Position numbers and translations under genes: made by a program. The notes beneath the pieces were generated by a model. The model was not told the DNA's origin, did not search any database, and was given only the letters and a program-made list of their open reading frames with translations. Shown one piece after another: positions 1,388-17,213 of a stretch of 64,000 bases of DNA. Numbering within the stretch: the first letter of the stretch is position 1; each line of letters begins with the position of its first letter. Source of the DNA: Candidatus Nomurabacteria bacterium (GTDB taxonomy: Bacteria > Patescibacteriota > Minisyncoccia > Phycocordibacterales > UBA9973). The stretch covers positions 139,920 to 203,919 of the forward strand of contig CP064973.1 of assembly GCA_016699365.1 (NCBI GenBank), given 5' to 3'.

Positions 1388-2520
1388 ATTGATATAAAAG
1401 ACTGTATTTTAGGTGCTTGCTTAATCTTTTCGTGAACGTACATTTTGGCACGTGCCACCACGTCACCTACATTACCGTCCTTGTTCTTTATCCTCTCCAC
1501 AATTTCCTTGAGTGATTGCGAGAAGTTGTGCTCATCAAAAAACCAACCACGATTTAATTGCTCTCCAATACTATCACGTAATCCCCCCACAGGAAAAGCT
1601 CCCACCAAGACTCCGCACAGCATGGCTTCAAGTAATGAAAGACCTAGTGCCTCAGAACGTGATGGTTGGATATATAAATCAGCAAAATAATAATACGACC
1701 ACACAGCATCATGATTAACTGCTCCGACAAAGTGAACCCTATCATGAATATTTAGTTCTTTACACCTATCTTTTAATTCTTTCATCATGGAACCTTCACC
1801 AACAATGACCAAATGCGCACGAGTGTCTTGAGTTGAAAAAGCTTCGATGAGTAAATCAATACCTTTTTCTTTTTCCAAGCGAGATACAGTTAAGAGTGTC
1901 ATTGATTCATCACTGATACCAAGTTGTCTTTTTATTTCTACTGATTTTAGCTTTGAAAATTCTGGGATATGTTCAAAGGTTTGGGGAGTAAAAGAATGAA
2001 TTGATTCTTCTTTTATTTTTAAATAATTTTTTGCATATTCAAAACTATCACGACTAATTGTCATAGCATGATCAATTCTTCTTCTTACCACAAGCTCAGA
2101 AAGCACAACGTACCAGTACCTCGCCTTGCTTCCAGTTTTTTTTGCCCACACTCGATTTAGTCCGTTAATAAATATACACACCTGAAATCTTTCTTTCTTA
2201 AAAAAGTTGACCCACCACAAGAGTGCTGCATCTGCTGCAACAACAAGATCAGGAATAAATTTTCTTTTTACAATAAAAATAATCGCAACAATGCCTAGAA
2301 AAAAATCTGAGAGCGGACGAGCGTGTTGGAATGGGAATTTTATGACTTTACTTGTTACATTTTTTGAAATAACTTTATCACCTGAAACTGGACCAACTTG
2401 TAAAAAATGGATGACATTATTTTCAGGATCAAACCCATCACGGTTAAGACGCCTGAGGACTTCTTTTGAGTCATGGAGTGAGAAGCCACGCCAATCGTAA
2501 GCAAGGATTAGTATTTTCAT
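1384..2520 (-). CDS. Glycosyltransferase, GT4/GT1 (GT-B fold)
   Basis: 378 aa with the C-terminal motif EALGLSLLEAMLCGVLVGAFPVGGLRDSIGE (the E-x7-E nucleotide-sugar-binding signature of GT4 enzymes). Confidence 0.8.
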   Translation of the reverse strand: MKILILAYDWRGFSLHDSKEVLRRLNRDGFDPENNVIHFLQVGPVSGDKVISKNVTSKVIKFPFQHARPLSDFFLGIVAIIFIVKRKFIPDLVVAADAALLWWVNFFKKERFQVCIFINGLNRVWAKKTGSKARYWYVVLSELVVRRRIDHAMTISRDSFEYAKNYLKIKEESIHSFTPQTFEHIPEFSKLKSVEIKRQLGISDESMTLLTVSRLEKEKGIDLLIEAFSTQDTRAHLVIVGEGSMMKELKDRCKELNIHDRVHFVGAVNHDAVWSYYYFADLYIQPSRSEALGLSLLEAMLCGVLVGAFPVGGLRDSIGEQLNRGWFFDEHNFSQSLKEIVERIKNKDGNVGDVVARAKMYVHEKIKQAPKIQSFISI

Positions 2521-2562
2521 ATAATATTCTTAATAGTATCAAACTTTTCAATCTAATTATAC

Positions 2563-3273
2563 TTGTCAAAAATATCTGCTCGTGATATAAATACAATCAC
2601 AATCATGTCTTCACCTGATAAAAACATTCAAATATTTGGTATCCACAACTACGACGAATATTGGAAAAACAGAAAGAATAAAAATCGAACCTACAAGACG
2701 GATATACACCGCATTCTTGTTGAGCTTGTTGTAAAACATACACCTCAAAAATCAAAAATTTTAGATTTAGGTGTCGGACCAGGACATCTTTTCAAAGAGC
2801 TCCAAGAATTGAAATTTGATATGTATGGAGTTGAAATTTCTGAGGAAGCCTTTGGTCTGTATAATTTTCCTTCAGATCAAATAACAAAACATGATCTCCA
2901 AAAAGGCATCCCTACTATTACTGCCAAGCCATTTAAAACAATCATTGCGAGCCATATCATTCATCACATGCGTGAGCCAATCTCTTTTATTCATCAAGCA
3001 CGTGAAAACTTAGACACGGGTGGTATTTTTATTGTCGCAACTCAGAATATTTCATTTATATTGTACCGATTAAAGTATTTATTTTTTGGTGAATTTCCAA
3101 AGGTAAGTTTTGGACATATAAATTTCATTAGTCCATATGAATATCGAGAAATTCTTAAAAAGTCAGGTTTTGAAATTATTGACATACGCACAACTGGTAG
3201 TCATACATTTTTAAACAAAATTTTTCCGTTCTGGTTTTCTGGTACTTTATTCTTTGTGTGCAGAAAAACCTAG
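2563..3273 (+). CDS. Class I SAM-dependent methyltransferase
   Basis: 236 aa with motif I LDLGVGPGHLFKEL and post-I acidic residue YGVEISEEA, a Rossmann methyltransferase pattern. Confidence 0.7.
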   Translation: MSKISARDINTITIMSSPDKNIQIFGIHNYDEYWKNRKNKNRTYKTDIHRILVELVVKHTPQKSKILDLGVGPGHLFKELQELKFDMYGVEISEEAFGLYNFPSDQITKHDLQKGIPTITAKPFKTIIASHIIHHMREPISFIHQARENLDTGGIFIVATQNISFILYRLKYLFFGEFPKVSFGHINFISPYEYREILKKSGFEIIDIRTTGSHTFLNKIFPFWFSGTLFFVCRKT

Positions 3274-3879
3274 TGTCTTAAGAAGTGATTCCTCTTGTAG
3301 TTTTTCGTACACCAAACGATTTGGCGTACTATGCTCTAAATAATCAATATCAACAAAAAAGAGTTTTTTTGTATCTTTATTTTTATACAGCATATTTTTT
3401 AGCTTGATATCTCCGTGGACAAAACCAGCACCATGCAACAGATTGAGCATCCTAATTGCATCTCTAGCTATAAATTCCCTATCGTCATCTTGTAGTAAGT
3501 GAATCTCTGGTGACCAAAAATCTTCTAAGTACTCCATTGCGATAAAACCCTTTATTTGTGTTACTTGTGGAAAAAAAATGCTTACCTCTTGGGGTAAATT
3601 TTCAAAAGTATGGATTTGTTCCTCTGTGGTAGGATGATTTCTTCCTGAAACAAAATTATACATTGAAGAAAAAGGATTTCTTAGTTTTAGAAAATATTTT
3701 TTATTATCCGTACGCGAAGTTGCCTTATAACAAAAATGAGAAAACGTATACCACTTCTTTACTATCGAAACATTGTGAGTTCTTATTAAATTAAAAATAA
3801 CAAAAATCACTACTGGGAAATACCCCAAAACAATCGAAGTCCTGTTAAGTAACGAGAAAAAATGTTTAATAAAAATCAT
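3247..3879 (-). CDS. Protein-kinase-like fold protein, Kdo/WaaP (lipopolysaccharide kinase) family-like, with an N-terminal TM segment
   Basis: LHGAGFVHGDIKLKNMLY (HGD catalytic loop) followed by LFFVDIDYLE (DxD). Its 3' end overlaps the convergent methyltransferase by 27 nt. Confidence 0.55.
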   Translation of the reverse strand: MIFIKHFFSLLNRTSIVLGYFPVVIFVIFNLIRTHNVSIVKKWYTFSHFCYKATSRTDNKKYFLKLRNPFSSMYNFVSGRNHPTTEEQIHTFENLPQEVSIFFPQVTQIKGFIAMEYLEDFWSPEIHLLQDDDREFIARDAIRMLNLLHGAGFVHGDIKLKNMLYKNKDTKKLFFVDIDYLEHSTPNRLVYEKLQEESLLKTLGFSAHKE

Positions 3880-3885
3880 ACATTA

Positions 3886-4533
3886 TTATTTCTTTGCGAC
3901 AATAAAGTACCCAAGTGGAAATGGTTGTTTTCTTTTCATCCCAGATGGAATTAGTGTATCAAGTAAAAGCGCGAGTGAATTAAAAATAAGTTTAACAGGC
4001 CATATTAAGAAAAATGCATTGAGCGCATATGCACACACACTAAATCTATCACCAATTTGTTCAAGTAACTCAATTTTTAAATTAGACTCTTCTAGTGCTT
4101 TTTCAAACCCTTCTTTAGTAAGTCTGCCGAAATCCCGAGGCTCGGGCATACAATTGACTCCAAATGGATTTGAAATCAGCACACAACCACCATCTTTAAG
4201 TACACGTCTACATTCTACTAAGACATGATTAGTTTTTTCTGCAATATAAAGATTATGAAATAAAAGAACAGTATCGACACTTGAATCCTCATACGGAAAT
4301 CTTTCATTAAAATTAAGAACCTGCGACACTCCTTCTTTTTGAACATAGTCAGTTCTTATGTGTACAATCTCTTTTGGTAAATATTTGGCATATGTGAGAT
4401 TACCGCCTGAACCAATATCAAGTACTCGCCCTTTTATATATCGAGAAGCCTTAAAAACTTCTTGTTGAAATAGTATCCTGTACAGAGTCTTTCCGGAGAT
4501 TGTCTCTCTTAAATAGTCACCTATAAGCATCAT
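3886..4533 (-). CDS. Class I SAM-dependent methyltransferase (Methyltransf_11-like)
   Basis: VLDIGSGGNLTYAKYL motif I and VLKDGGCVLIS motif. Confidence 0.7.
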   Translation of the reverse strand: MMLIGDYLRETISGKTLYRILFQQEVFKASRYIKGRVLDIGSGGNLTYAKYLPKEIVHIRTDYVQKEGVSQVLNFNERFPYEDSSVDTVLLFHNLYIAEKTNHVLVECRRVLKDGGCVLISNPFGVNCMPEPRDFGRLTKEGFEKALEESNLKIELLEQIGDRFSVCAYALNAFFLIWPVKLIFNSLALLLDTLIPSGMKRKQPFPLGYFIVAKK

Positions 4534-5273
4534 CTTCGAACTTTAGCATATATTCCAAAAAATGTTGAGAGTTTAGCCTTAAATGCTAATTTGTCAGTTT
4601 TACTATCAATCGAAATTCTAGGAAGTGAAAATAGATCAGATTGTTGATCCACAAACCCATTTATTGTTGTGACCGCACTACTATATCCTGCTTTCTGTAC
4701 AAAATCTATTTCTCTTTTACTAAACTTTCCACGTGGATATGCAAAAGAATTCTCACTCTTACGTGCAACTTCATTCATCAGTTCATTTACTGAAAGATTT
4801 ATTAATTCTCGATGAGTCATTGCATGTGAACCAATTTCAACTAATGGATTCTTAGATAATAGCACTATTTCATCTTCTACCAGTAATTTACATATTACCC
4901 CGTCAGATGTCTTAATTTCATTTGAATCAACACGTTTTGGCCAAAATAAAGTACTACAAATATTTCTCTTTTCAAACTCTACAAGTGCCGTAGTTAAATA
5001 ATCACGATGGCCATCATCACACGTTATGACAACTACTTTCCGTAATGATTCTTTATTTTTAATTTTTTGTACCATCTGGGATTGTGTCAAAAATACGTAT
5101 TCATTTTTCTTTAAGTAATCCAACTGCCACTCAAAATCTTCCAAAGGAACATTAAAGAACGCGTTTGGTAATTCAAAAGAGTGGTACATTAAAATTCTTG
5201 CCTTGTTATCGGTCAAGAAATAATCAAATAATATACACACTTTATAAAATAGTATTCTCAAAATAGATTTCAT
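4530..5273 (-). CDS. Polysaccharide deacetylase (NodB homology domain, CE4)
   Basis: VVVITCDDGHRDYLTTAL (the TFDDG-type motif 1) and H-rich downstream motifs. Overlaps neighbouring genes by 4 nt. Confidence 0.7.
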   Translation of the reverse strand: MKSILRILFYKVCILFDYFLTDNKARILMYHSFELPNAFFNVPLEDFEWQLDYLKKNEYVFLTQSQMVQKIKNKESLRKVVVITCDDGHRDYLTTALVEFEKRNICSTLFWPKRVDSNEIKTSDGVICKLLVEDEIVLLSKNPLVEIGSHAMTHRELINLSVNELMNEVARKSENSFAYPRGKFSKREIDFVQKAGYSSAVTTINGFVDQQSDLFSLPRISIDSKTDKLAFKAKLSTFFGIYAKVRR

Positions 5274-6316
5274 ATGTACATAGAAAAATTATCCATCAAT
5301 AGTTTCAGACTATGCTTTTTGCCAATCTCAACCAGTGTATCTTGCTCTACATCACAAGAAACAATACACTTTTCAAACATACGTGCTACATCCTCAATTT
5401 CCAATGACTGTATTCCGATTTCTTTTCTTATGCCTTCAGGTAGTTCATCCAAAAAACTTGTATTGTATACAAGTGGAACGCATCCGCAATATGCAGACTC
5501 CCAAATTGTCTTATCAAAACTACCAGATGAAGTCAGGTTTATACAAAATCTATGTGCCGAATATATTTGAGGTAATTTTGTATGATCTACTGAATCAAGA
5601 AATGTAATCTTGCTTGTGAGATTATTTTTATTGATTGTTTCTATCAATGCATCTGTATACTTTTTATCGATATCGCCATCTATGGGTCCAACTAAATTTA
5701 GAGTAAAATCTAAAGTCGAATTCTTGCTAAAAAGCTTTGTGAATGCATTAATTATTATATCTACATTCTTAATTTCGGAAATTCGACCTACATACAAAAA
5801 AGAATGTTGCTTTCTTTCTATATTCCCTACAGGCCGAAACAGATTTTCGTCTATCCCCACAGGCATTTTGATTGAATTTTTAAATTTTGAAGTATACGAT
5901 CCTGAGGAAGTGTAAAAAACTTTTTGAGCCATAAAACCCGCAACTTGTGTCTTCCACGAACCCAGTTTATGATTTCGCCACAAAAACACTTCTTTACACA
6001 AAAATCTCCAAATCACTCCTCCTAAAAGTACGTACTCTTCGTTCATATGAACAAAGACTTTCTCGTAATTTTTCCTTTCTGCGATAATGTATTTAAAGAA
6101 ATTAAAAATATATTTTATTTTAGAAACACCGCTCTCTTTTCCAAGTGTCAGAACCTTAACATTTAACGGGAAATCAAACTCACCTTTTTTAAGACATATA
6201 ACAGTTACAAATTCATATTTTTTTGAAAACTCTATTATCCACGAATGAAAAAAACCCAATATTGGATCATTTCTATCCACCGTCTGAGTCAGTATGAGCA
6301 GTCGATTTTTTTTCAT
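5270..6316 (-). CDS. Glycosyltransferase (GT-B, GT4-like)
   Basis: 348 aa with C-terminal ...WESAYCGCVPLV... nucleotide-binding region. Lies in a glycosyltransferase cluster. Confidence 0.6.
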   Translation of the reverse strand: MKKNRLLILTQTVDRNDPILGFFHSWIIEFSKKYEFVTVICLKKGEFDFPLNVKVLTLGKESGVSKIKYIFNFFKYIIAERKNYEKVFVHMNEEYVLLGGVIWRFLCKEVFLWRNHKLGSWKTQVAGFMAQKVFYTSSGSYTSKFKNSIKMPVGIDENLFRPVGNIERKQHSFLYVGRISEIKNVDIIINAFTKLFSKNSTLDFTLNLVGPIDGDIDKKYTDALIETINKNNLTSKITFLDSVDHTKLPQIYSAHRFCINLTSSGSFDKTIWESAYCGCVPLVYNTSFLDELPEGIRKEIGIQSLEIEDVARMFEKCIVSCDVEQDTLVEIGKKHSLKLLMDNFSMYI

Positions 6317-6320
6317 GACG

Positions 6321-6977
6321 TTATTTTCTTATCGGGTTTCTGGCAACAAATAAAAACATATGAGCAAATGAATACTTAAAAAGCCACGAAAGGAGCCAAA
6401 ACTTTTTTGAGACAATTGGAATAATCTCTACATCACTAAAATGTTTTTCCAAGATCGACCTAAACTCTTTATAGGTAAAATGATTTATGTGAGTTGGGTC
6501 TTGTAATGGTGTATGCTTTTTAATATTGAATATGAAGCGTATCTTTGACTGAAAACTATAAGCAAATGGAACAGAACCTACAAATAAACCGTTATCTTTC
6601 AAAACAAAGGAGGCTTTTTGGGTTATATTTTCTGGATAGTATAAATGTTCTAAAACTTCAGCTGCAACAACAACGTCAAATGTCTTTGCTTGTAAGCCCC
6701 AATCCCCATTCAGGTCAACCTGTCGCACTTTTATAGGAATAAGTGCCTGAGCACGATCTAATGCCTCTTGATCAATATCTAAGCCAAGCACGTTGTTCCC
6801 TTCAAAAAAATATTTTGTTAAAGCCCCATCACGACACCCAATGTCAAGAACATCTTTACCTTTTTCTATAACATCACGAAGAAATGGCCCTCTTTCTTGT
6901 TCCATGGTGATAAAATATTTTCCCCTACGATTAATGTTATGTTCGCTGTAAATCTTTTGAAGTGAATTAGATTCCAT
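6321..6977 (-). CDS. Class I SAM-dependent methyltransferase
   Basis: VLDIGCRDGALTKYF motif I; VLGLDIDQEA; VVVAAEVLEHL. Confidence 0.7.
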   Translation of the reverse strand: MESNSLQKIYSEHNINRRGKYFITMEQERGPFLRDVIEKGKDVLDIGCRDGALTKYFFEGNNVLGLDIDQEALDRAQALIPIKVRQVDLNGDWGLQAKTFDVVVAAEVLEHLYYPENITQKASFVLKDNGLFVGSVPFAYSFQSKIRFIFNIKKHTPLQDPTHINHFTYKEFRSILEKHFSDVEIIPIVSKKFWLLSWLFKYSFAHMFLFVARNPIRK

Positions 6978-6990
6978 AATTAATTTAAAA

Positions 6991-8142
6991 TTATTTATTA
7001 TAACTTATAGCTTTCTGTATATTCATTAATAAGACCTTATTATACTCTAATCTATCCCTATACTCATATTTATGTGGATTGTTAATCAGGTATTCTTTTG
7101 CTTCCTGATATATTTCAAATTTATCTAATAAATAGTCCGTTTTTTGAAAAAAACAAAGACTGTCTTTTGGCGAACAAATCCAACCACTCCTTCCTTCAAT
7201 TATAACTTCTGATGCAATTCCTACATCACTGGCCAAAACTGGAGTACCACAAATCAATGATTCAATAATTGTCAGACCATAACCCTCAAATCTTGAACTT
7301 ATCCAAAATAAATCAGCTATTTTATAATATGGAGCTAAGTCATTAATCCATGGTATAAAAAGTACACTTGATTCAATCTTTAGTCTTTTAACCTTCTCTT
7401 TTAGAAAAAGACTTTGTGATCCTGAGCCAATTATAACCAATCCAATCTTTTGTGGGTATTTTAAATCTAACTTGGAAAAAACATCTAGTGCCATGGAAAT
7501 ATCTTTTTCTATTTCTAATCTCGAGGCCATAAGAATCAAAAATCTTTCTTGTTTAAATAAATCTTTTTTTTGAATTTTTACATTGTTTAAAATTTCATAT
7601 TTTTTTACATCTATAAATACAGGGACAACGTCGATAGCGGCTGTAGTAATTTTTTTTTCTCTCAAACTATTCATTATTCGCTTTGAAACACATCTTATAG
7701 AATCTGCCTGTCTAATTACAAAATATGCAATAATAATCCTTATGTACTGTAAAAAAGTATTTTTAAAAAATGGAGAAAATAAGTCAACATGAATCTGAAT
7801 ATTAAGTGCACAACCTGTGATCTTTGATACAATAAACCCTACAAGGCCACACTCAAAAGGATCTTGTGTCGTAACAACGACATCTTTAAATTTATCTTTG
7901 GGTATATTTTTAATTATTTTAATACTTATAATAACCGCATCAATAATACAAAGTATTTTAAAAAAGGATTTCGTTGGGTAAAGTATAGTATTATTAATAT
8001 ACTGCTTGGCAAAAACATCCTTTTTTAAAGTAAATATAACAGCATGGTATTCATCAAAAGATTTTGCAATGCTTAAAACACGATCTCTGGTAGAACTCTC
8101 AGTAAATAATCTTCTTTCTGTGCCTATTGCTACAACAATCAT
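6991..8142 (-). CDS. Glycosyltransferase family 4/1
   Basis: EGYGLTIIESLICGTPVLASDVGIASEVI motif. Confidence 0.75.
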   Translation of the reverse strand: MIVVAIGTERRLFTESSTRDRVLSIAKSFDEYHAVIFTLKKDVFAKQYINNTILYPTKSFFKILCIIDAVIISIKIIKNIPKDKFKDVVVTTQDPFECGLVGFIVSKITGCALNIQIHVDLFSPFFKNTFLQYIRIIIAYFVIRQADSIRCVSKRIMNSLREKKITTAAIDVVPVFIDVKKYEILNNVKIQKKDLFKQERFLILMASRLEIEKDISMALDVFSKLDLKYPQKIGLVIIGSGSQSLFLKEKVKRLKIESSVLFIPWINDLAPYYKIADLFWISSRFEGYGLTIIESLICGTPVLASDVGIASEVIIEGRSGWICSPKDSLCFFQKTDYLLDKFEIYQEAKEYLINNPHKYEYRDRLEYNKVLLMNIQKAISYNK

Positions 8143-9140
8143 AAAATTATTCTTTCAAAGTCAGTAATAATATCTTCCCAGGTATTAATGTATCTACAAT
8201 TTAAAATATTTTCCCTTAAAGAGGAGTAAATTTTCGGGTCACATATTTTTGTTATACCATCTTTTATAGAATCTAAGTTAAAAGGTTCAATTAAAATACC
8301 CATATTCATAAACCGAATATTTAATCCTGTATGTCTAGTCAAAATGAATGGTTTACCAAAAGAAATACCCTCAAGCACTATATTGGGATTTACCTCCGAA
8401 AAAGAAGGAGCCGCAACAGCGTAAGATGTTTTAATTTGTTCTTGTATATCTTGGTGAGTAGAGATCTTATCAAAGATTTCTACTCCAACACCTTCTTTAG
8501 AAACTTCAGCCACAGCTTGTGTAAACATTGCATTATTTTTTAACTTTATTTTGCGAGAAGAAAGTATAATCTTTTTGTTTTGACTAATACCACAATCATT
8601 AACTCCACTAAAATAATTTTCAATAAGAACAATCTTAAAATCAGGAATCTTGTAATTTTTTAATAAAAAATTACCAAACCACATAGAATTAACAACTACT
8701 TTAGTTGATTTTTTTAGAGTGTATTTTGTCAAACCCTTTATAATATTTTCTTTCACAGAAAAATCATTTTTATCATAAAAAGACTCAAGGGTTATATTTT
8801 GACCTGTATGTTCAATATGATATTCCCAAAGAAAGTCACCACCTATTCTAATAAAGAATTTTTTATTAAACACAAAGCAAGCAATCGCAGTAGGGAATCC
8901 AACACTAACCGCATCTAATAAAATTACCCTATCTGCCCATAAAACTTTAGGTAAAATTTTTATAAAAAAACATATATGTCTAATTAAAGAAGGCATATTT
9001 CTTTCCCAGGTAAAACTAGAAACTTTCACACGGTGCCCTCTTGAGCGAAAACCTTCATTTAAATTAAAGGCATACTGAGCAGGCCCTCCGATTTCTGGAG
9101 GATAAATTCCTGTTGCGATAAGAATGGATTTTCTGTTCAT
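8139..9140 (-). CDS. Glycosyltransferase (GT4-like)
   Basis: N-terminal MNRKSILIATGIYPPEIGGPAQYAFNL (GT4 N-domain) and C-terminal EVNPNIVLEGISFGKPFILT. Confidence 0.6.
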   Translation of the reverse strand: MNRKSILIATGIYPPEIGGPAQYAFNLNEGFRSRGHRVKVSSFTWERNMPSLIRHICFFIKILPKVLWADRVILLDAVSVGFPTAIACFVFNKKFFIRIGGDFLWEYHIEHTGQNITLESFYDKNDFSVKENIIKGLTKYTLKKSTKVVVNSMWFGNFLLKNYKIPDFKIVLIENYFSGVNDCGISQNKKIILSSRKIKLKNNAMFTQAVAEVSKEGVGVEIFDKISTHQDIQEQIKTSYAVAAPSFSEVNPNIVLEGISFGKPFILTRHTGLNIRFMNMGILIEPFNLDSIKDGITKICDPKIYSSLRENILNCRYINTWEDIITDFERIIL

Positions 9141-9194
9141 TATGTTATGAGAATACTACAAGAAATACTTCTGCGCCAGGTATCAAAAATAGGA

Positions 9195-10358
9195 TTATTT
9201 AAATACCTCTTTCATCTCCCCTGCTATCAGATTCCAATCATATTTCTCAATCACCATCGACTTCGCATTTTCTATAATGCGATTTTTTTGTTCAGGATTA
9301 TTTTCAAATCTCATTATTGCTTCTGCAATACTTTTCGGGTTTTCTACTTCACAAAAGTATCCTGTCTCTCCATCTTTCAAAAAGTCTGGTATCCCACCGA
9401 CAGATGTTGCAACTACTGGCAAACTTATTGCCATAGCTTCTAGAAACGAATTGCCCAAGCCTTCTGAAAGTGAAGGTCTCACAAATACATCTGAAATTTT
9501 CAAATACTTTGGCATTTCACTGTGTGGTACATACCCGAGAAAAATAACCCGAGCTTTTAGATGTAAACTGTCAGCTTTTAGCTTTAAATCATTCTCGAGT
9601 GGGCCGTTGCCTAGCACCAGAAAAATAAAATTCTCTGGCAAATATTTTAGTGACTCGATTATATCCCCCACTCCGTTTTTCTTTACGAGACGGGACGTTG
9701 TAATAATCACTTTTTGAGATTTATTTATACCCAATTTTTCCTCTAAAGTCGTGATCTCTCTTAGATCATAATTTCTCGTAAATAAAGATACGTCCACTGC
9801 ATTTGGAATGACCACCGGAGTATCTCGAAATCCCATACTTTTACCGAAATCTGCTAGGTATGTAGATATAGCCTGTATGGTGTCAGCATGGGTAAAAATA
9901 CGCTTCCAGAGTGGGTATACGAGCGCTACACGACGCTTTATGTAGGAAATGGGATCTCCTTCCTGAAGTGTCAAAATGAAGCGTATTTGAGGGTATTTTT
10001 GCTTGAAAAACAAAGCTCCGAACCCAGCATAGTTGGCCATAATCGCCCACATACTTTGGAAACATATCTGCTTCTCGAGTCTCTTTGCTTTCATGTACGA
10101 CTGAAATGGAAATAGGTATTTTGAAATCTGAAAAAACACCTTTCCGACAACAGGAATACCCAGTAGATACGGCCCTACTCTGTGCACTGTAATATTGCCT
10201 ATTTGTTCAACTCGCTTCCGGTCAGTGCGCATAGTTACCATGAAAAAGCTCGCTTCGTCTTTGCCGATACGATCTGTGATCTCTTTCACTGCGACCTCTG
10301 CTCCCCCGACAAAGTTTGGGTAGTATACAAGCGAGAATATTAGAATCTTTTTATTCAT
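9195..10358 (-). CDS. Glycosyltransferase family 4
   Basis: MNKKILIFSLVYYPNFVGGAEV... and SLSEGLGNSFLEAMAISLPVVATSVGGIPDFLKDGETGY. Confidence 0.8.
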   Translation of the reverse strand: MNKKILIFSLVYYPNFVGGAEVAVKEITDRIGKDEASFFMVTMRTDRKRVEQIGNITVHRVGPYLLGIPVVGKVFFQISKYLFPFQSYMKAKRLEKQICFQSMWAIMANYAGFGALFFKQKYPQIRFILTLQEGDPISYIKRRVALVYPLWKRIFTHADTIQAISTYLADFGKSMGFRDTPVVIPNAVDVSLFTRNYDLREITTLEEKLGINKSQKVIITTSRLVKKNGVGDIIESLKYLPENFIFLVLGNGPLENDLKLKADSLHLKARVIFLGYVPHSEMPKYLKISDVFVRPSLSEGLGNSFLEAMAISLPVVATSVGGIPDFLKDGETGYFCEVENPKSIAEAIMRFENNPEQKNRIIENAKSMVIEKYDWNLIAGEMKEVFK

Positions 10359-10423
10359 AAGAAAAGTATACCCTCGGGTAAGTTTTTTACAAAATAACTA
10401 TTTAATATTAAATGTTTTGGTGC

Positions 10424-10451
10424 TAGACAAAATAAATTTTAGTGATATAAT
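10424..10451 (+). promoter_or_regulatory. Sigma70-like promoter (TAGACA-16-TATAAT) upstream of the esterase gene
   Basis: tagaca at 10424-10429, a 16-nt spacer, and tataat at 10446-10451. It lies about 35 nt upstream of the ATG at 10487 in a divergent intergenic region. Confidence 0.35.
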
Positions 10452-10486
10452 ATAAAAATTATCCTACTTTTTTTAAATAAAAAATA

Positions 10487-11377
10487 ATGAAAAAAATCAC
10501 AATACTCACATTACTTTCTTTAATTACAAGCATGTTCCTATTTACAAACGCACAGGCAGCGTTTGTTCCCTACGAATTAGAGACAATCTCTGACGTATAT
10601 TTTGGCACAGTCGATAGTACAGATCTCTACCTCGATGTAATCCGACCTATCGGTACCGCGTACGAAACTCCCGCTATCATATGGGTACACGGAGGAGGAT
10701 GGTCTGCTGGTACACGCTACCAAGAACCAGGTAGTGAGGCTTACACACTCGCAAGTTATGGCTACGCTATCGTCCCTGTAGACTACCGACTCACACCAAC
10801 AGGCACCCTACCTGAACAAATCCATGACGTTCGAGGAGCAATCCGCTTTATCCGAGCACATGCAGAAGAATACAATATCGATGCAGATCATATTGCAGTA
10901 CTCGGTTCGTCTGTCGGTGGAGCTATCGCTTACATGACAACACTTACAAATGATGATCCATTTTACTTTGGAGAAGTAGGAGGAAACCTAGACGAGAGCA
11001 ACGAAGTCCAAGCTGGAATAAACTTCTTCGGATCACTGTCAGTTGAAAGTATCGGAGAACTCAAACCTTCTCACAGAACAAAACTAGCAGACGCACTCGA
11101 CTGTGCCGATGTACTCACACTCGACTGTGCAGAAGAACTCGAGATCATCGACGTGAACTTACTCGCAAATGCAGGAGATGCTCCACTATATACCTTCCAT
11201 GGCAATGCTGACCTAAGTGTCCCCTACACACAGAGTGTCGAAATGTCAGCCGACATCACCGCACTCGGAGGAATATCTTTTCTCAAGATAATCCCAGGAT
11301 ACGATCATGAAATATCGATGATGAACACACAGATCCCTACCCTAAAAAGATTCTTCAAGAAATATTTGGGGGTGTAA
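10487..11377 (+). CDS. Secreted alpha/beta-hydrolase (esterase/lipase-like)
   Basis: Signal peptide MKKITILTLLSLITSMFLFTNAQA. IWVHGGGWSAGT oxyanion-hole motif and GSSVGG nucleophile elbow (GxSxG). Confidence 0.7.
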   Translation: MKKITILTLLSLITSMFLFTNAQAAFVPYELETISDVYFGTVDSTDLYLDVIRPIGTAYETPAIIWVHGGGWSAGTRYQEPGSEAYTLASYGYAIVPVDYRLTPTGTLPEQIHDVRGAIRFIRAHAEEYNIDADHIAVLGSSVGGAIAYMTTLTNDDPFYFGEVGGNLDESNEVQAGINFFGSLSVESIGELKPSHRTKLADALDCADVLTLDCAEELEIIDVNLLANAGDAPLYTFHGNADLSVPYTQSVEMSADITALGGISFLKIIPGYDHEISMMNTQIPTLKRFFKKYLGV

Positions 11378-11392: not shown

Positions 11393-11421
11393 AAAAAAAT
11401 CTACTTAGAGTAGATTTTTTT
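11393..11421. terminator. Bidirectional intrinsic terminator between convergent genes
   Basis: The hairpin aaatctact-tagag-tagattt is flanked by A and T runs. Confidence 0.5.
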
Positions 11422-11449
11422 AATGTTCCTAAAATATTTAAAAAGATTT

Positions 11450-12535
11450 TTATCTTTCATACACCTCAAAAGTTTTTTGAATCATTTGTTCTTTTGAAAA
11501 ATTACTTTTTACCCTCTCGTGCCCCAGCTCGCCCATTTTTTGTAAAGCAGGTTTATCTGAGAATATTTTTTCTAGGACCTCTGCCCATATTTCAGAACTA
11601 GAATCTCTAGGAATCAACACTCCGACATCACTCGACACTGCTTCAGATATTCCTCCAACATCACTTGCAAGCACTGCGCACCCCTCGGCCATCGCTTCGA
11701 GTATTGTCATTGGGAAACCTTCCCATAGTGTAGGTAAGACAAATACAGAACTTTCTCGTAAAGTTTTTCGTACAAGACTCCCATCGCACTCGCCCATCAT
11801 ATGTACATGTGCGCTCAAGTCCAACTTTTTAATTAATATCTCTAAATCAGGTCTTTGTGCCCCATCGCCTATAATAGACAGTTTCGGTAATTCCACACCT
11901 TTGTTTTTTAAAATATGAAGTGCGCGAATCAAAACTTCTGGTTGTTTTGGAGGAACAAGTCTACCAACAAAAACTATTGAATTTGTTTTCTCTGTAGATA
12001 TGTTGTCCACTATAGTTACGCCGTTATATACAGTAACCACTTTCTCATCTCGAAGTAACAAGAATTTTTTTATATTCTTTCTATCGTTTTCCGAAACAGC
12101 AATAATTTTTTTACAAAATCTAGATGCGATAAATTCTGCAACAATCGCAATTGGCTTTCTCCAGAGCGGAGCGCCTTTTGTAAACGCTATACCGTGAGCA
12201 GTGAAAATTGTTGGGTATTTTCTACCCAGAGCAAGTCTGCCGATAAACCCTGCAAAAGAACTATGAACTGAAATTATTTCAGGATTAAATTCTTTTGCGA
12301 CCACTCTCAAGTCTAGGTATGTTTGCAAAATAGAAAAAGGATTGAATGTATTACCAAGTTTTGAAGATACATACACTTCAAAGCCGTATTTGGTAGCTTC
12401 GTCTACCAAATACCCCTCACCTCCAGTTACGAGCAAGACCTGATCTCCTTTTTCTTTATGACTCAGCAAAAGTTCGTGGAGTACACTCTGCGCTCCACCA
12501 CGTTCTGCTTTTGTGATTAGATATAAAATACGCAT
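11450..12535 (-). CDS. Glycosyltransferase family 4
   Basis: MRILYLITKAERGGAQSV... and EGFPMTILEAMAEGCAVLASDVGGISEAV. Confidence 0.8.
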   Translation of the reverse strand: MRILYLITKAERGGAQSVLHELLLSHKEKGDQVLLVTGGEGYLVDEATKYGFEVYVSSKLGNTFNPFSILQTYLDLRVVAKEFNPEIISVHSSFAGFIGRLALGRKYPTIFTAHGIAFTKGAPLWRKPIAIVAEFIASRFCKKIIAVSENDRKNIKKFLLLRDEKVVTVYNGVTIVDNISTEKTNSIVFVGRLVPPKQPEVLIRALHILKNKGVELPKLSIIGDGAQRPDLEILIKKLDLSAHVHMMGECDGSLVRKTLRESSVFVLPTLWEGFPMTILEAMAEGCAVLASDVGGISEAVSSDVGVLIPRDSSSEIWAEVLEKIFSDKPALQKMGELGHERVKSNFSKEQMIQKTFEVYER

Positions 12536-14583
12536 TAAATTTTATCGAAGAAATATAAACTAACTTCAGGAAAAGATTTTATATTTTTATCTATATAAGA
12601 TACAACTTGCTGACTCTTTTCTATGTTTGGATTGATCGCAAGTCCTTTTTGCGCCCACTCACGAGCAAGATTAAATTTACCTTGATACAAAGACAGGACA
12701 GATTTCATCCAATACCCTTGTGGAATCTCAGGATTCATCTCTATAGCTTTGTCTAATACCAAACTTGCTTCCTCGAGCCTATTTACCCCAAGCAGATTGC
12801 TATACATCAACACATCGGCGTAGTTAAAATGCGCGCGAATATCATTTGGATGACTGTCTAAATAATTTTTGTATTCATTTGCAAATATCTCAAGTTCTTT
12901 TTTGAAGTTTTCTTGGTTTTTTGGATTTTCGATTGACGCTGGATTTTCTGATATTCCTCTTTGGAAATCAGTCGATGTTCTCCAGAGAAAAGAAGGCAGA
13001 TCCATAGGTGAACCAAAAAGTACAGGATACATCGGCAATCTCTTCTCAGCACTTCCAACTGTACGAATAGTTCCATTTGTATGTTCAGCTCGAGCTATAG
13101 GCATAGTCCCAGCGAAAAATGCCCAACCAAAATATCCAATCAAACAAACTGCACCTATATATTTTATATATACAGGAACAGCTAAAGTATGATTACTTTC
13201 TTTATTGTTTTCGATATAAGTTTTACGGTATAGATTTGAAGCTAGTGCAATCATAATCAAAACCGCAACCAGAGATATAGTGGTATCAAAAGCTGTTTGA
13301 AGTTCCGCTAAGTGTCCTAAAAAGTAAATTATCAATATTGAAGCTAAGAGTTGATCATTTTTTTCTTTTGATTTTAGTAACACATAAACTAGTGAACCCA
13401 GTACAACAAAATACACAAGCAGGTAGAAAGACAACCCAATATATCCAGTGTCTACTGCTTGATCGATAAATACATTGTGTGCTCTGTCGAACCAAGCTTC
13501 GTTACCGAAACGCTCTTCTAGAAGTCTATTGTCATAATTTTGTTCAAACCCTCGATCAAAGTTGTCAGTTCCCCATCCGAGCAATGGTCTTTCCTTTATC
13601 ATATTTGCAGATAGTTCCCAGACTATAGGTCTAGCACTTGTTGCCTGACTCAAATAAACTCCTCTTAGATACCCATCTTCAGCCAAGAAAGATCTTATCA
13701 GCACAGCAGAAGAGACTAGGGTTATTACTAGAGCACCCCATATCAGCCCTCTCCTTATCTTTGCACTTGATATTTTTGAACCGAAATAAAAAACTACTAA
13801 AGCAAAAAGTGATATAGCTAAAACATACGCACCCGCACGAGCTTCTCCGACAATCCCCATAGGATTAGTAACCAAATCCACCTGCCCCTTCCAAACCTTA
13901 TGACTTATGATATAAGGGTTTATAAAAAATGCGACAGGCAAAAGTCTATGCCACCACTTTTTTTCACTACTTTCTGTCGAGCGAACAAGGTATATAGAAA
14001 TCAAAAATGCAGCAAACAAATACATTGCAGCGAAAGTCGAGTTACCAAAAGAAAACCCATCCCACAACCTTGTTTTAAATATAAGACCCAATCCTTCCGG
14101 ACCTAGTAGAGATAGTACTGAAAAAATACCTGATGAAACTGCAAAAACCTTCAAGAAACCTCTTTGGACTTCTTCGTCTTTAAATAAATATGACAAGAAG
14201 TAGTAAATCATCACAAGATGAGAAAAGAAAAATATACCACTTACGCGTGCTGCCTTAGACCAAAAAGATATTGATGGATCTACACCGTTTAGACCAGCTA
14301 AAACCAAAACAATAAAATACATAGACAAAACTAAGGCTATAGGTGACTTGAAAAGTTTCACTTCCCTGTTTTTTTTAAATAGAGATATGGCAAATATGAT
14401 AGCCAGGATCTCAATTATAATCATCAGAAAAATAGCCCGGGATGATGTTCCGTTGTACAAATAACCTTTAAATAAAATTATTGGGAAAAGTGCAATAAAT
14501 CCCACCAAAACATATCTGATTAGTTCAAATATTCCACTTTTTAATTGATTTTTAGACATGCTTTTATTATACGCACCATTCAT
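12535..14583 (-). CDS. Polytopic membrane protein with Wzy_C/O-antigen-ligase-like domain and C-terminal TPR repeats (candidate oligosaccharyl/polysaccharide ligase)
   Basis: 682 aa. At least 10 hydrophobic segments are followed by a soluble C-terminal region with TPR-like repeats (...ASLVLDKAIEMNPEIPQGYWMKSVLSLYQGKFNLAREWAQKGLAINPN...). The architecture matches O-antigen ligase family proteins with TPR. Confidence 0.6.
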   Translation of the reverse strand: MNGAYNKSMSKNQLKSGIFELIRYVLVGFIALFPIILFKGYLYNGTSSRAIFLMIIIEILAIIFAISLFKKNREVKLFKSPIALVLSMYFIVLVLAGLNGVDPSISFWSKAARVSGIFFFSHLVMIYYFLSYLFKDEEVQRGFLKVFAVSSGIFSVLSLLGPEGLGLIFKTRLWDGFSFGNSTFAAMYLFAAFLISIYLVRSTESSEKKWWHRLLPVAFFINPYIISHKVWKGQVDLVTNPMGIVGEARAGAYVLAISLFALVVFYFGSKISSAKIRRGLIWGALVITLVSSAVLIRSFLAEDGYLRGVYLSQATSARPIVWELSANMIKERPLLGWGTDNFDRGFEQNYDNRLLEERFGNEAWFDRAHNVFIDQAVDTGYIGLSFYLLVYFVVLGSLVYVLLKSKEKNDQLLASILIIYFLGHLAELQTAFDTTISLVAVLIMIALASNLYRKTYIENNKESNHTLAVPVYIKYIGAVCLIGYFGWAFFAGTMPIARAEHTNGTIRTVGSAEKRLPMYPVLFGSPMDLPSFLWRTSTDFQRGISENPASIENPKNQENFKKELEIFANEYKNYLDSHPNDIRAHFNYADVLMYSNLLGVNRLEEASLVLDKAIEMNPEIPQGYWMKSVLSLYQGKFNLAREWAQKGLAINPNIEKSQQVVSYIDKNIKSFPEVSLYFFDKI

Positions 14584-14593
14584 CCAAAAACAA

Positions 14594-14621
14594 CAAAACC
14601 GCCCCGAAGGGCGGTTTTGTT
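14594..14621 (-). terminator. Intrinsic terminator (palindromic, usable on both strands) after the surface-protein gene
   Basis: The hairpin ccgccc-cgaa-gggcgg is flanked by an A-run and a T-run. Confidence 0.6.
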
Positions 14622-14651
14622 TACCTGTAAAATTTACAGTATCAAGCGAGA

Positions 14652-16658
14652 CTAGTTAAGAGTTCCGTATGAAGTCTTAAATGAGTCAAGGTTTGAAGTG
14701 TAAGAGTTACTTGGTGTTGCATCTGTTGATGTTGTTGTCCATCGGATTCCAGATAGTGCAGCGCGGTATAGACCTGCTGCTCCAGCTGTAGGAAGCTGAA
14801 CTGAAACCGTAACCTCAAATGTGTTTTCTTCACCATTTGTAAGTTCAAATAGACCTGCAGCATTTACAGAAGTGTTAGTTGTGTTAGCAAGTACAGCTGA
14901 AACTCCACCTGTTGTAGCAGTTCCTGCACGGTCAACAGTTACAGATGTGTAACCATCTGTGTTTGCACCTGTTGTATCGTCAGCAAGTGAAGAAACGTAA
15001 ATTGTTTCTCCAACAGCCTTCACCTTGTACTTGATAGTAAATGATCCTAGGTCATCGTTTGCTGATCCACCATCAGATATTGAACCAACTGAAGCTGATA
15101 CGAAAGTAACCATGATTCCGTTTGAGCGAAGCTGTTGAGCCTCACCTGTAGCAGTACCAGTTTTCTCTGTATCATCTGTCAATTGATCACCTTCTTCGTC
15201 CTCAGCATCAATGTAGTCATTGTTTGTTGAAGTCAAAGATGCAAGCAATGTGTCTCCTTCTGCGAATACAGTTCCATCGATTTCTTTTATGTCAGCTTGA
15301 ACTTCGAAGTCTACTGTATCACCAGCAGAAAGTGTGAAGTCTAGGTTATCGAATGTGATTGTACCTGTAAGAGCAGCAGTGATTGTCATTGTCTCTGTGT
15401 ATTCCTCACCGTCAATTATCAACTTAACAGATGTAGCGATATCATCGATACCGTTAGCAGTTCCTGAAGAAGTTGCTGTGAAAGTGATAGGAAGTTCATC
15501 GATAATGATGTCTGAATCTCCTTCTGCTTCAAGAGTTCCCATAAGTAGAGATACGTCATCTGTTGAACCTGTATCACTTACCAATGCGATTCCAGCTTCT
15601 GGTGAATCTGAGTCTAGTGTAACTACTAGTTCAGTATCAGCAGCATCTGAGAATGAAACGAAGTCAATAGTAACATCCATTCCTGGCATATCACCTGTTG
15701 AGTCATCAGTTGTTGTAACACCTGATCCATCAACGAATCTTATGTTAAGTACATCAACATCCCATGAATCTCCAGTAAGATCTGAAGAATCGAATGTTCC
15801 TGCAGCATTAACTACGATGTAGAAGTTCTCAGTTTCGTCTGCTCTAATAACAGCACCGTCAAGTGATACTGTTCTTGTGTAGATATCAGATGATTCTGTG
15901 AATTCATCAACGTCTGCTGAGCCAACTTCTGTTGAACCCATCATGATTGAGATTGAATCAATGTAGTCATCTAGGTGTAGTGAACCAGTGTTTCCAGTTG
16001 AATCGAATTGAATCTTCATAGATGAGATTTCGATATCACCATCGTTTGTAGCTTCAACTTCGAAACCTGCAACTGTAACATCATCTTGTCCCTCACCAAC
16101 CTCTTCGCCACTGTATGAACCAAGTTCTGTAACGTTAGAGATATCTCCGAAAGATCCTGCTAGAGGACCAGTTGGAGTTGTTGTTCCTGCACATGAAACT
16201 CCAGTTGTAGGAGAAAATCCTACTGTTGAAGTACATCCTGCTGGAAGAGTTGTAGCTGCAGCACATGAAGCGCCAGTTGTTACACTGTAGCCTGTGTTTG
16301 AAGTACATCCCGCTGGGTAAGAGCCAGTAGCCATACCGTTGATAGATGCTGCAGTCATAGGACCAACAACACCATCAGCTGTAAGACCGTGAGCTGATTG
16401 ATAAGAAACAACAGCTGCCTTAGTCAAAGGACCAAAGTTGCCGTCTGCAGTAAGACCTCCAAGAGCTGTCTGTAGGTTTACTACTTGTGTTCCACTTGAA
16501 CCTTGTGAAAGGTTTGGAGGAACTGTAACCAAAGCATATGTTGATTTTGCTAGTGCAAGAACTGCAACAAAAGCGAAAGCAACAACTGCGAATTTTGTAA
16601 ATTTACTCATAATTAAAATTATCCTTGTTAATCGCCGCGTGGTATTTTTCTTTATCAA
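14652..16658 (-). CDS. Secreted peptidoglycan-binding, Thr/Ser/Asp/Gly-rich acidic repeat protein (putative cell-surface protein). The probable true start is Met17 at about 16610.
   Basis: Signal peptide MSKFTKFAVVAFAFVAVLALA. Tandem PG_binding_1-like motif TQVVNLQTALGGLTADGNFGPLTKAAVVSYQSAHGLTADGVVGPMTAASI. Three copies of AGCTS-x-G(Y/F)S-x-TTG-x-SCA. A following roughly 500-aa low-complexity acidic T/S/D/G-rich region. Confidence 0.6.
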   Translation of the reverse strand: MIKKNTTRRLTRIILIMSKFTKFAVVAFAFVAVLALAKSTYALVTVPPNLSQGSSGTQVVNLQTALGGLTADGNFGPLTKAAVVSYQSAHGLTADGVVGPMTAASINGMATGSYPAGCTSNTGYSVTTGASCAAATTLPAGCTSTVGFSPTTGVSCAGTTTPTGPLAGSFGDISNVTELGSYSGEEVGEGQDDVTVAGFEVEATNDGDIEISSMKIQFDSTGNTGSLHLDDYIDSISIMMGSTEVGSADVDEFTESSDIYTRTVSLDGAVIRADETENFYIVVNAAGTFDSSDLTGDSWDVDVLNIRFVDGSGVTTTDDSTGDMPGMDVTIDFVSFSDAADTELVVTLDSDSPEAGIALVSDTGSTDDVSLLMGTLEAEGDSDIIIDELPITFTATSSGTANGIDDIATSVKLIIDGEEYTETMTITAALTGTITFDNLDFTLSAGDTVDFEVQADIKEIDGTVFAEGDTLLASLTSTNNDYIDAEDEEGDQLTDDTEKTGTATGEAQQLRSNGIMVTFVSASVGSISDGGSANDDLGSFTIKYKVKAVGETIYVSSLADDTTGANTDGYTSVTVDRAGTATTGGVSAVLANTTNTSVNAAGLFELTNGEENTFEVTVSVQLPTAGAAGLYRAALSGIRWTTTSTDATPSNSYTSNLDSFKTSYGTLN

Positions 16659-17213
16659 AAATACTCGCTAGCCATACACGTAATTAATAGTCTAGTTTCG
16701 ACGAAACTAAATTGGTGTGTATGTTGTGCCCGATACTTATCACCGAACACTGTTCAGGCACTTAATTAAGGTGTCTGAACCTTTTGAACTCTCCGATAGG
16801 GAGAATTCATTCTGCCTTGTCGACAGGGCATATTTATCAGTATGTCGCCAAGTGAAAAACAAAAACATCGCGCCAATAAATTGGACGCGAAAAATTATTT
16901 GATTTTCAATGAGCGATCATATTGAAACGAAACACTTTGTTCTTGTCTATGTTCCTATCAACAAACAACAAGAACGTTCTGACAGTGTAGCATATTCTTT
17001 AAAAATAAGCCACAACTGTACATATTCATTATAAGACCCACAATGTTTTAAAGCATAGCGGCTTATGTGGATAACTTGTTAAATAGCAAGCTATTTTTGT
17101 TATCTATGAATATTGAAGCTTCTAGGCTCTATAGGTGTTATCACCCATAAACAGACTTTTCGGCTTCATATAACTAGACGATATATATAGTATGTTTCTT
17201 ACAAATAAAAACT

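Follow-up and report, generated by a model that had tools for sequence, protein, structure and literature searches.

A candidate protein O-glycosylation locus in a Nomurabacteria genome: a Wzy_C-TPR membrane enzyme encoded beside a peptidoglycan-binding surface protein

In the tiny genome of a candidate-phylum bacterium (Candidatus Nomurabacteria, Patescibacteria), the genes for a surface protein, a Wzy_C membrane enzyme and a variable glycan island lie side by side within the window, the 64-kb stretch of DNA that was analysed. The best explanation of this arrangement, held with moderate confidence, is a locus resembling the S-layer-glycosylation (slg) loci in a monoderm-type Patescibacterium, in which the enzyme would act as an O-oligosaccharyltransferase. 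Glycosylation of the surface protein by this enzyme is the most likely interpretation of the gene context. The two open reading frames at the centre of the preliminary description (12535-14583 and 14652-16658, both on the minus strand) are real and have these coordinates. The features of the locus are as follows.

16611..17213, minus strand: non-coding leader and promoter region, 5' of the surface-protein gene (ORF and Rfam scans)
14652..16610, minus strand: surface-protein gene, candidate glycosylation target
16191..16307, minus strand: part of that gene coding for the linker with Cys-bracketed S/T loops (motif search, homologue comparison)
14592..14621, minus strand: strong intrinsic terminator between the surface-protein and enzyme genes (hairpin and T-run)
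12535..14583, minus strand: Wzy_C-TPR membrane enzyme gene (682 aa as listed)
11450..12535, minus strand: GT4 glycosyltransferase, first gene of the glycan island (Pfam Glycos_transf_1, E 4e-34)
1..11377, no strand assigned: variable low-GC island for glycan building and decoration (Pfam, GC, locus comparison)

The 682-aa protein had been read as a Wzy_C protein with TPR repeats. This reading agrees with a Pfam Wzy_C (PF04932) match over residues 247-388 (E 4.8e-14; 52.8 bits against a cut-off of 31.7) and with a 3-TPR module. E. coli WaaL scores 50.0 bits with the same profile library. Translation probably starts at M8 (ATG at 14562), giving about 675 aa, because the closest homologues are 674 aa long and begin with MSK. 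Topology prediction gives 13 TM helices, and in structure comparison the fold, expected to have 12-13 TM helices, superposes on a solved member of the Wzy_C superfamily. The C-terminal domain (495-682) is predicted to be extracytoplasmic. It consists of a strongly conserved juxtamembrane segment followed by the 3-TPR module, which resembles peptide-binding TPRs, and the whole extracytoplasmic domain is conserved.

Conserved loop Arg and His residues had been named as a check of Wzy_C function, and they are present. The predicted extracytoplasmic catalytic loop (301-376) contains R318, GWG336-338, E362 and D366-R-A-H369-N370. R318 and the D366-R-A-H369-N370…G380..G383 pattern are invariant in the enzyme alignment, and R318 and the H369 region are counterparts of the reference catalytic residues, the loop Arg (WaaL R288) and the His (WaaL H338, PglL H349). 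RAHN falls on WaaL HLH338N in a weak hhalign alignment (E 0.053, probability 1%), and the ARPIVWE segment around R318 resembles WaaL ARLAMYE by eye. The profile search reached WaaL only at E 0.049, and a PDB sequence search with the catalytic region alone returned nothing useful. H424 and E427 are also invariant, at +55 and +58 from H369; E. coli WaaL has S388-D389 there, the equivalence of the positions being judged by eye. The by-eye counterpart of the second conserved Arg (WaaL R215, PglL R224) is R248, a position that is R, Q, F, K or M in A1. The invariant R113 and R367 might replace it.

Membership of the PglL group by motif was ruled out. PglL_A (PF15864) did not match the whole protein at E up to 0.01 or residues 395-460 alone at E up to 10, and Wzy_C_2 was not detected on the whole enzyme or on the relevant segment at E up to 10. 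PF13425 (O-antigen_lig) also gave no match at E up to 0.01. Neither the Wzy_C fold nor the motifs tell acceptor types apart.

The open reading frame upstream of the enzyme encodes, as described, a secreted protein with a peptidoglycan-binding domain, as indicated by a signal peptide and a PG_binding_1 match (E 4.1e-11). The length of 668 aa requires correction: the true product has 652 aa and begins at the ATG at 16610, and the TTG at 16658 is not a start. It matches NCBI protein P0121, named 'peptidoglycan-binding protein [Candidatus Nomurabacteria bacterium]', with 100% identity. Its parts, in order, are the signal peptide, the N-terminal PG_binding_1 domain, a 64-aa linker of S, T, G, A and P, and an acidic all-beta body of about 500 aa (D+E 18%). 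Calling this body extremely Thr/Ser-rich was an overstatement. Its S+T content is 25%, about twice the 11.5-12% of the FtsK and Wzy_C proteins from the fetched related loci, and it is folded and not of low complexity. In the AF2 model (mean pLDDT 83), residues 157-652 are all-beta and form confident beta-sandwich domains. Foldseek matched the body only to tandem Ig-like domains, a generic result, with structural matches from integrin legs and MSCRAMM adhesins. The confident beta-sandwich array and these generic matches ruled out the folded body as a mucin-like acceptor.

The mucin-like part of the protein is the linker, a flexible low-complexity segment with 36% S/T and a pLDDT of about 55. 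The acceptor is likely to be the linker and not the folded body. The linker holds two Cys-bracketed 15-mers, CTSNTGYSVTTGASC and CTSTVGFSPTTGVSC, which form S/T loops. In the six-frame translation of the window this motif occurs solely at 16191..16307, and the region is the most plausible candidate acceptor site. A linker is present in 32/32 homologues and is hypervariable (21-71 aa, 20-57% S/T, with frequent poly-Thr runs). The Cys-bracketed motif is found in 17/32 homologues, at 0-2 copies each; for this reason it was ruled out as a universal sequon.

The pairing of the two genes recurs widely, as the preliminary description had asked to be checked. Relatives are encoded by 486 genomes. A total of 51 orthologous loci were found, 49 of them with upstream DNA, and in all 49 a surface-protein homologue lies directly upstream of the enzyme on the same strand. 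Enzyme identity across the paired loci is 40-84%. Single-gene insertions between the pair occur occasionally (12 loci), and no wider separation was ever seen. Synteny breaks directly downstream of the enzyme and never between the enzyme and surface-protein genes. The proposal that glycan genes, enzyme and target are encoded together stands as regards adjacency and the glycan island beside the enzyme. It does not stand as a common simple operon, because a strong terminator separates the surface-protein and enzyme genes. The terminator has a 13-bp stem with 7 G-C pairs and a 4-nt loop, followed by a T-run; a hairpin of -10 kcal/mol or below with a T-run follows the surface-protein stop codon in 48/49 orthologous loci.

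The pair also sits within a wider syntenic block, with EF-P in 28, RecA in 35, FtsK in 39 and hyp304 in 42 of the 51 orthologous loci. Thus, synteny alone is weak evidence, and the adjacency of enzyme and surface protein could be inherited gene order. Mirror-tree partial correlations were 0.40 for the surface protein with the Wzy_C enzyme and 0.46 for the surface protein with FtsK, which served as the control; the signal for the pair is significant but not specific. Since the surface protein also tracks FtsK, co-evolution by this measure was not counted as evidence.

A second line of information comes from a paralogous Wzy_C-TPR family of 22-29% identity. Its members adjoin PG_binding_1 proteins with poly-Ser/Thr linkers, and this like neighbour recurs in different genomic contexts. 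All 8 of the PG_binding_1 open reading frames found for this family lie within 2.5 kb of the enzyme, against 0 in the other 232 kb. At the paralogue loci, S/T-rich open reading frames make up 16/97 of the adjacent and 2/173 of the non-adjacent ones. Each of the 6 candidate PG-binding open reading frames that were scanned matches PG_binding_1, in 5 cases above Pfam's cut-off, and has an S/T- or Pro/Ala-rich low-complexity linker alongside.

On its other side the enzyme is flanked by the glycosyltransferase island, and the GT4, methyltransferase and deacetylase genes of this island lie at 1-12535. The ATG of the first GT4 gene overlaps the TAA stop of the enzyme (TAATG), a junction that suggests translational coupling of the two genes. 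In 8 relatives, the enzyme is followed by a homologous GT4 after 0-15 bp. The remainder of the island (1..11377) contains five more GT4 genes, three methyltransferases, a polysaccharide deacetylase, a small kinase-like protein and a secreted BD-FAE esterase on the plus strand; an open reading frame called by eye as carbamoyltransferase-like runs off the window start. At 2-10 kb the GC content is 0.30-0.33; most of the remaining window has about 0.35-0.40. One island protein is without a record, and another is known only from a 2.8-kb contig. The island is variable. Its individual genes occur in only 0-19 of the 51 orthologous loci, and elsewhere the enzyme is followed by different islands or directly by rplJ/rplL. 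Only about half of the relatives have a glycosyltransferase island next to the enzyme. Genes for a priming phosphoglycosyltransferase, a flippase, Wzx, Wzm/Wzt, a WsaP-like enzyme and rml functions are absent from the window ORFs scanned, and the island continues past the window start. An ABC exporter is encoded at 23452-25212; it is unrelated and not syntenic.

Among known systems, the slg loci of Geobacillus stearothermophilus and Paenibacillus alvei, with their predicted enzymes WsaB and WsfB, share with this locus a monoderm-type envelope. C-terminal TPRs are described for WsfB and PglL, and S-layer genes are monocistronic and sometimes lie near slg clusters (PMC2943079). The present locus likewise has a Wzy_C-TPR enzyme (with TPR in cis in WsfB, and as the neighbouring WsaA for WsaB) beside glycosyltransferase and modification genes, near a monocistronic surface-protein gene, and it shares the methyltransferases, low GC and overlapping stop and start codons of slg clusters (PMC2943079). 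The likeness to WsaB and WsfB lies in these described features. The candidate target here is anchored by PG_binding_1, whereas slg targets are anchored by SLH domains. The Wzm/Wzt transporter, the WsaP-like priming enzyme and the rml genes of slg clusters have no counterparts in the window, and the scanned window ORFs include neither a priming phosphoglycosyltransferase nor an exporter belonging to the cluster.

The Gram-negative enzymes PglL, PglS, TfpO and PilO are similar in Wzy_C, in the WaaL-like 13-TM fold with a large outward C-terminal domain, in the catalytic His and Arg and, as judged by eye, perhaps in a His/Glu pair about 55 residues past the catalytic His. PglL genes frequently adjoin their targets (PMC3643930), and flexible segments that are rich in S/T or bracketed by Cys serve as acceptors (PMC3643930, PMC12800693); a gene position beside a plausible acceptor is what the orthologous loci with upstream DNA display throughout. 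They differ in the PglL_A and Wzy_C_2 motifs, undetected here, and the neighbouring target is no pilin. The present organism has no outer membrane, and the C-terminal domain of its enzyme, a juxtamembrane segment plus TPR, is distinct.

The O-antigen ligase WaaL (PDB 7TPG and 7TPJ; E. coli WaaL) differs in that the present gene is outside any waa cluster, the enzyme has an extra 190-aa extracytoplasmic TPR domain, and the by-eye equivalent of R215 is not conserved. A Parcubacterium genome is missing the lipid A/LPS genes lpxC and kdsA (PMC5220378), and no waa or lpx genes occur in the 64-kb window; a lipid A-core acceptor is therefore unlikely, and WaaL in the strict sense was ruled out for want of an LPS context. 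For WpaA and WpaB of Bacillus anthracis (PF13425), which belong to the clan of Wzy and WaaL, polymerisation or ligation of wall polysaccharide has been proposed (PMC6030368). They too come from a monoderm bacterium, and they are clan relatives tied to assembly of the surface layer. They fall in another Pfam family, which the enzyme does not match, have no reported TPR, and have a proposed acceptor that is wall polysaccharide and not protein.

For the O-oligosaccharyltransferase reading, the following pathway may be proposed. In the cytoplasm, GT4 enzymes would build a glycan on a polyprenyl-pyrophosphate carrier together with enzymes for methyl, carbamoyl and deacetyl modification, and a transporter encoded outside the window would flip this glycan outward. 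The 13-TM Wzy_C enzyme would then move the glycan en bloc onto protein hydroxyl groups, using the extracytoplasmic Arg/His loop (R318, H369), while the outward TPR domain may hold the acceptor polypeptide. The preferred acceptor would be the Ser/Thr-rich linker, a flexible segment next to the peptidoglycan-binding domain of the presumably abundant surface protein whose gene lies directly upstream. Several observations count against this reading: the terminator, the wider syntenic block, the undetected PglL_A and Wzy_C_2 motifs, the non-conserved by-eye equivalent of WaaL R215, the window without primer or exporter genes, the roughly half of relatives that have no adjacent glycosyltransferase island, and the folded target body, which is not a typical PglL-type acceptor.

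In the main alternative, the enzyme would work in the manner of WpaA/WpaB and ligate or polymerise a non-protein glycopolymer of the envelope, for instance a secondary cell-wall polysaccharide or a glycan anchored to lipid. The neighbouring surface protein would then be linked by shared wall function, or the polymer would help to retain or organise it. This appears rather unlikely. It draws on the clan shared by WpaA/WpaB with Wzy and WaaL and on the disturbed S-layer assembly seen on their depletion (PMC6030368), and the neutrality of the Wzy_C fold and motifs as to acceptor, the absent PglL_A motif, the terminator and the broader syntenic block all agree with it. Against these stand the lack of a PF13425 match, the likeness of the outward TPR module to peptide-binding TPRs, the absence of LCP-type ligase or wall-polymer genes from the window, and the two paralogous enzyme families, which both adjoin proteins sharing a poly-S/T linker beside PG_binding_1.

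As a rule, Wzy polymerases are specific for their repeat unit and highly divergent. An enzyme of this type, polymerising an exopolysaccharide or capsule made by the island with the TPR as scaffold or chain-length element, is quite improbable here. Some polymerases do fall within Wzy_C, and the gene appears coupled to GT4 at the head of a glycan island; yet the enzyme, its whole extracytoplasmic domain included, is conserved at 41-84% identity beside different islands or with no adjacent island, and neither Wzx nor a chain-length regulator (Wzz or PCP) was found in the window. The enzyme remains 41-49% identical beside several different islands, which fits a donor-tolerant ligase or transferase better than a repeat-unit-specific polymerase. 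Improbable too is the absence of any functional link, with the genes (EF-P, RecA, FtsK, hyp304, surface protein, Wzy_C) neighbours by clade synteny and the linker a mere spacer. The broad synteny, the terminator and the non-specific mirror-tree signal speak for it; against it stand the same kind of neighbour for the paralogous family in different contexts, and a break of synteny right after the enzyme and never within the pair, where only single-gene insertions occur.

The Patescibacteria envelope is largely undefined, and according to one genome paper its formation and structure 'remain unclear' (PMC5220378). Because these bacteria live on other cells or depend on them, the cell surface has a central place in their biology. 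Should protein O-glycosylation lie behind the pairing, a conserved major surface protein and its decorating enzyme would be identified, and there would be a reason for the variable glycosyltransferase islands in these small genomes. The range of Wzy_C-type O-oligosaccharyltransferases would also grow by a new bacterial lineage, in which the acceptor is anchored through PG_binding_1; no report of protein O-oligosaccharyltransferases in Patescibacteria was found within the limited literature searched. A wider proposal is offered tentatively, as possible but somewhat short of probable: Paceibacteria/Parcubacteria may have lineage-wide dedicated O-oligosaccharyltransferases, in at least 2 paralogous Wzy_C-TPR families without PglL motifs, whose TPR docks PG_binding_1 proteins and whose target is the Ser/Thr linker, the swappable downstream islands giving strain-specific 'serotypes'. 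If true, the Candidate Phyla Radiation would gain its first protein glycosylation system and its first defined envelope glycoconjugate. The linker sequence, H369 and the TPR domain provide testable targets.

The leader of the surface-protein gene (16611..17213) contains no family-matching open reading frame, the longest being 61 aa, and no Rfam family matched it; Rfam and tRNA scans of the whole window were empty. A promoter consensus scan found fewer sites than in shuffled sequence and was uninformative. Across 41 orthologous loci the corresponding gap is 314-983 bp long, with a median of 532 bp. The long leader and the strong terminator are indirect hints of high surface-protein expression.

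The locus is best read, with moderate confidence, as a protein O-glycosylation locus resembling S-layer glycosylation (slg) clusters. The Wzy_C-TPR membrane enzyme would move a lipid-linked glycan onto the Ser/Thr linker of the adjacent wall-anchored surface protein. The main features are as follows.

1-1390, minus strand: carbamoyltransferase-like ORF of at least 466 aa, called by eye and cut by the window start
10487-11377, plus strand: secreted BD-FAE / alpha-beta hydrolase esterase, on the strand opposite to the rest of the glycan island (1-12535)
12535-14583, minus strand: Wzy_C-TPR enzyme
14621-14592, minus strand: strong intrinsic terminator past the surface-protein stop codon
14652-16610, minus strand: surface protein
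16611-17213, minus strand: non-coding stretch upstream of the surface-protein gene
17214-18128, minus strand: conserved protein of 304 aa (hyp304)

ORF calling found both ORFs of the preliminary description in place. The enzyme matches Pfam Wzy_C (E 4.8e-14), and its C-terminus, scanned by itself, passes the TPR_2 and TPR_17 cut-offs. ATG 14562 is the probable true start, since the nearest homologues have 674 aa and begin with MSK. Topology prediction gives 13 TM helices, with Lys+Arg concentrated in the even-numbered loops (17 versus 6); the N-terminus is therefore placed inside, and the catalytic loop (301-376) and the entire C-terminal 188 residues outside. In the homologue alignment the invariant residues include R318, GWG336-338, E362, D366-R-A-H369-N370, G380, G383, H424 and E427, and the juxtamembrane segment 495-545 is strongly conserved. 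Profile comparison aligned RAH369N with HLH338N of E. coli WaaL, a short and weak match (E 0.053), and by eye SAR318PIVWE resembles WaaL GAR288LAMYE. Of the loop Arg and His residues proposed as a check for this enzyme class, R318 and H369 are invariant; the position matched by eye to WaaL R215 varies. The H424/E427 pair lies about 55 residues past the catalytic His, at a place where, by eye, E. coli WaaL has Ser-Asp, and is no more than suggestive.

No Pfam PglL_A match was found in the enzyme. C-terminal TPR motifs have been reported in WsfB and PglL (PMC2943079), and PglS is described as a 13-TM, WaaL-like protein whose large periplasmic C-terminal domain forms a cleft (PMC12800693). The enzyme family is large, with 2084 cluster representatives at E <=1e-10, or 171 at the stricter E <=1e-30, for which 'O-antigen ligase family protein' is the sole source annotation.

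The surface protein starts at ATG 16610, not TTG 16658, and its 652-aa product is 100% identical to the NCBI entry 'peptidoglycan-binding protein [Candidatus Nomurabacteria bacterium]'. A signal peptide and then PG_binding_1 (Pfam E 4e-11) form its N-terminal part, in agreement with the peptidoglycan-binding domain claimed earlier; a 64-aa linker joins them to the body, which spans about 500 aa and had been called extremely Ser/Thr-rich. Its S+T content of 25% (D+E 18%) is indeed about twice the 11.5-12% of the FtsK and Wzy_C proteins of the fetched related loci, but the wording was overstated for a folded domain array whose sequence is well conserved among homologues. Structure prediction gave confident beta-sandwich domains (mean pLDDT 83), which in a structure search matched only generic Ig-like arrays. 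The linker has a low pLDDT (about 55) and is hypervariable in all 32 homologues examined (21-71 aa, 20-57% S/T, 24-48% G/A/P), with frequent poly-Thr runs. The Cys-bracketed 15-mer CxxxxG[FY]SxTTGxxC occurs in one or two copies in 17 of these 32 linkers, and in two copies here. The linker is the most plausible candidate acceptor region.

One genome per species was scanned; 486 genomes contained a relative, and 80 loci were fetched, 51 with orthologues (40-84% identity) and 29 with a paralogous Wzy_C-TPR family (22-29%). The pairing of the two genes recurs in relatives: in all 49 orthologous loci with upstream DNA, a surface-protein homologue in the same orientation immediately precedes the enzyme gene, usually at a distance of 30-200 bp. 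Two cautions apply to its weight. The pair belongs to a wider syntenic block (hyp304 in 42 of the 51 orthologous loci, FtsK in 39, RecA in 35, EF-P in 28), and a partial Mantel test gave a signal not specific to the pair. The terminator, moreover, separates the two genes and has an equivalent in 48 of 49 orthologous loci, so the surface-protein gene probably forms a separate, strongly terminated transcript. S-layer genes close to slg clusters are described as arranged in this way (PMC2943079).

The paralogous family, which occupies different genomic contexts, supplies the best case for a functional link. ORFs with at least 22% S+T made up 16 of 97 within two genes of the paralogous enzyme versus 2 of 173 farther off (Fisher p 2.5e-6, a statistic that ignores shared ancestry). 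All 8 PG_binding_1 ORFs in these loci are at most 2.5 kb from the enzyme, with 0 in the other 232 kb. Six of six scanned neighbours match PG_binding_1, 5 above the Pfam cut-off, and in each the domain adjoins a linker of low complexity, which for most of them is poly-Ser/Thr. One kind of neighbour is thus common to two distant enzyme families. That the two genes have no functional link is unlikely.

In five paralogous loci (L059, L061, L068, L074, L077) a gene pair recurs beside the enzyme (e.g. L061 12421-13134 and 13170-13946). The first protein (about 210-280 aa, zero Pfam match) has a hydrophobic helix at its N-terminus, repeats rich in S/T and, at the C-terminus, a Cys pair (…C…ACPK); the second is secreted and carries, besides a beta domain and PG_binding_1, a long linker of low complexity (poly-Ser/Thr in most of the loci).

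Downstream, the ATG of a GT4 gene overlaps the enzyme's TAA stop (TAATG). The remaining island genes are five GT4, three methyltransferases, a deacetylase, a small kinase-like protein, the esterase and the carbamoyltransferase-like ORF. Island G+C is low (0.30-0.33), and its genes are present in only 0-19 of the 51 orthologous loci; elsewhere the enzyme is followed by different GT, methyltransferase, GDP-mannose-dehydratase or epimerase sets, or directly by a small ORF and rplJ/rplL. The esterase, with a counterpart in 0 of 80 related loci, may be a recent insertion. Neither a priming phosphoglycosyltransferase nor a flippase or Wzm/Wzt exporter was found among the window ORFs scanned. Since the ORF at its edge crosses the window start, the island reaches past it, and any clustered genes for export and priming could be located there.

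A conserved enzyme with a swappable island fits a ligase or transferase tolerant of different donors. A repeat-unit-specific Wzy polymerase fits this less well and is unlikely. A lipid A-core ligase is also unlikely, because the window contains no waa/lpx genes and lipid A/LPS genes are missing from a Parcubacterium genome (PMC5220378). A ligase or polymerase acting on a wall or lipid glycopolymer, similar to WpaA/WpaB (PMC6030368), is a tentative alternative of lower probability than protein O-glycosylation.

An O-oligosaccharyltransferase with its target and glycan cluster is a kind of system already known. New here are an enzyme family without PglL motifs, its conserved outward TPR domain, a candidate acceptor anchored by PG_binding_1, and a host lineage with an undefined envelope. 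A literature search of limited reach found no report of protein O-oligosaccharyltransferases in Patescibacteria, to whose Parcubacteria group Candidatus Nomurabacteria belongs.

Several minor observations were made. The non-coding stretch, at about 600 bp, is of a length unusual in compact genomes and has equivalents in 41 orthologous loci (median 532 bp, range 314-983). It has zero matches in an Rfam family search, contains short hairpins and ATTATTAA-like motifs close to the start codon, and may be a stabilising 5' leader. Hyp304, encoded upstream of the surface-protein gene and without Pfam match, appears by eye to end in a winged-helix DNA-binding domain and may regulate that gene. In one relative (locus L015), a second Wzy_C-like ORF (4022-5866, 614 aa) separates the surface-protein gene from the orthologous enzyme; going by its N-terminal sequence alone, it resembles a tandem paralogue.

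The window has a G+C of about 37% and zero matches in tRNA and Rfam scans. FtsK (18264-20480) and RecA (20832-21900), on the plus strand, are each broken by a frameshift at a five-A run (GTCAAAAAGTTG, ATTAAAAAGGTG), and what remains of each protein (gamma domain of FtsK, C-terminus of RecA) is read in a different frame. Homopolymer indel errors from long-read assembly are the probable cause; truncated ORFs elsewhere in the window therefore call for caution. Isoleucyl-tRNA synthetase is seemingly divided over two ORFs (41353-42429 and 42438-44780, minus strand), and the upstream one has, past the catalytic core, an inserted or fused domain of the histidine-phosphatase type (His_Phos_1), either real or an assembly artefact.
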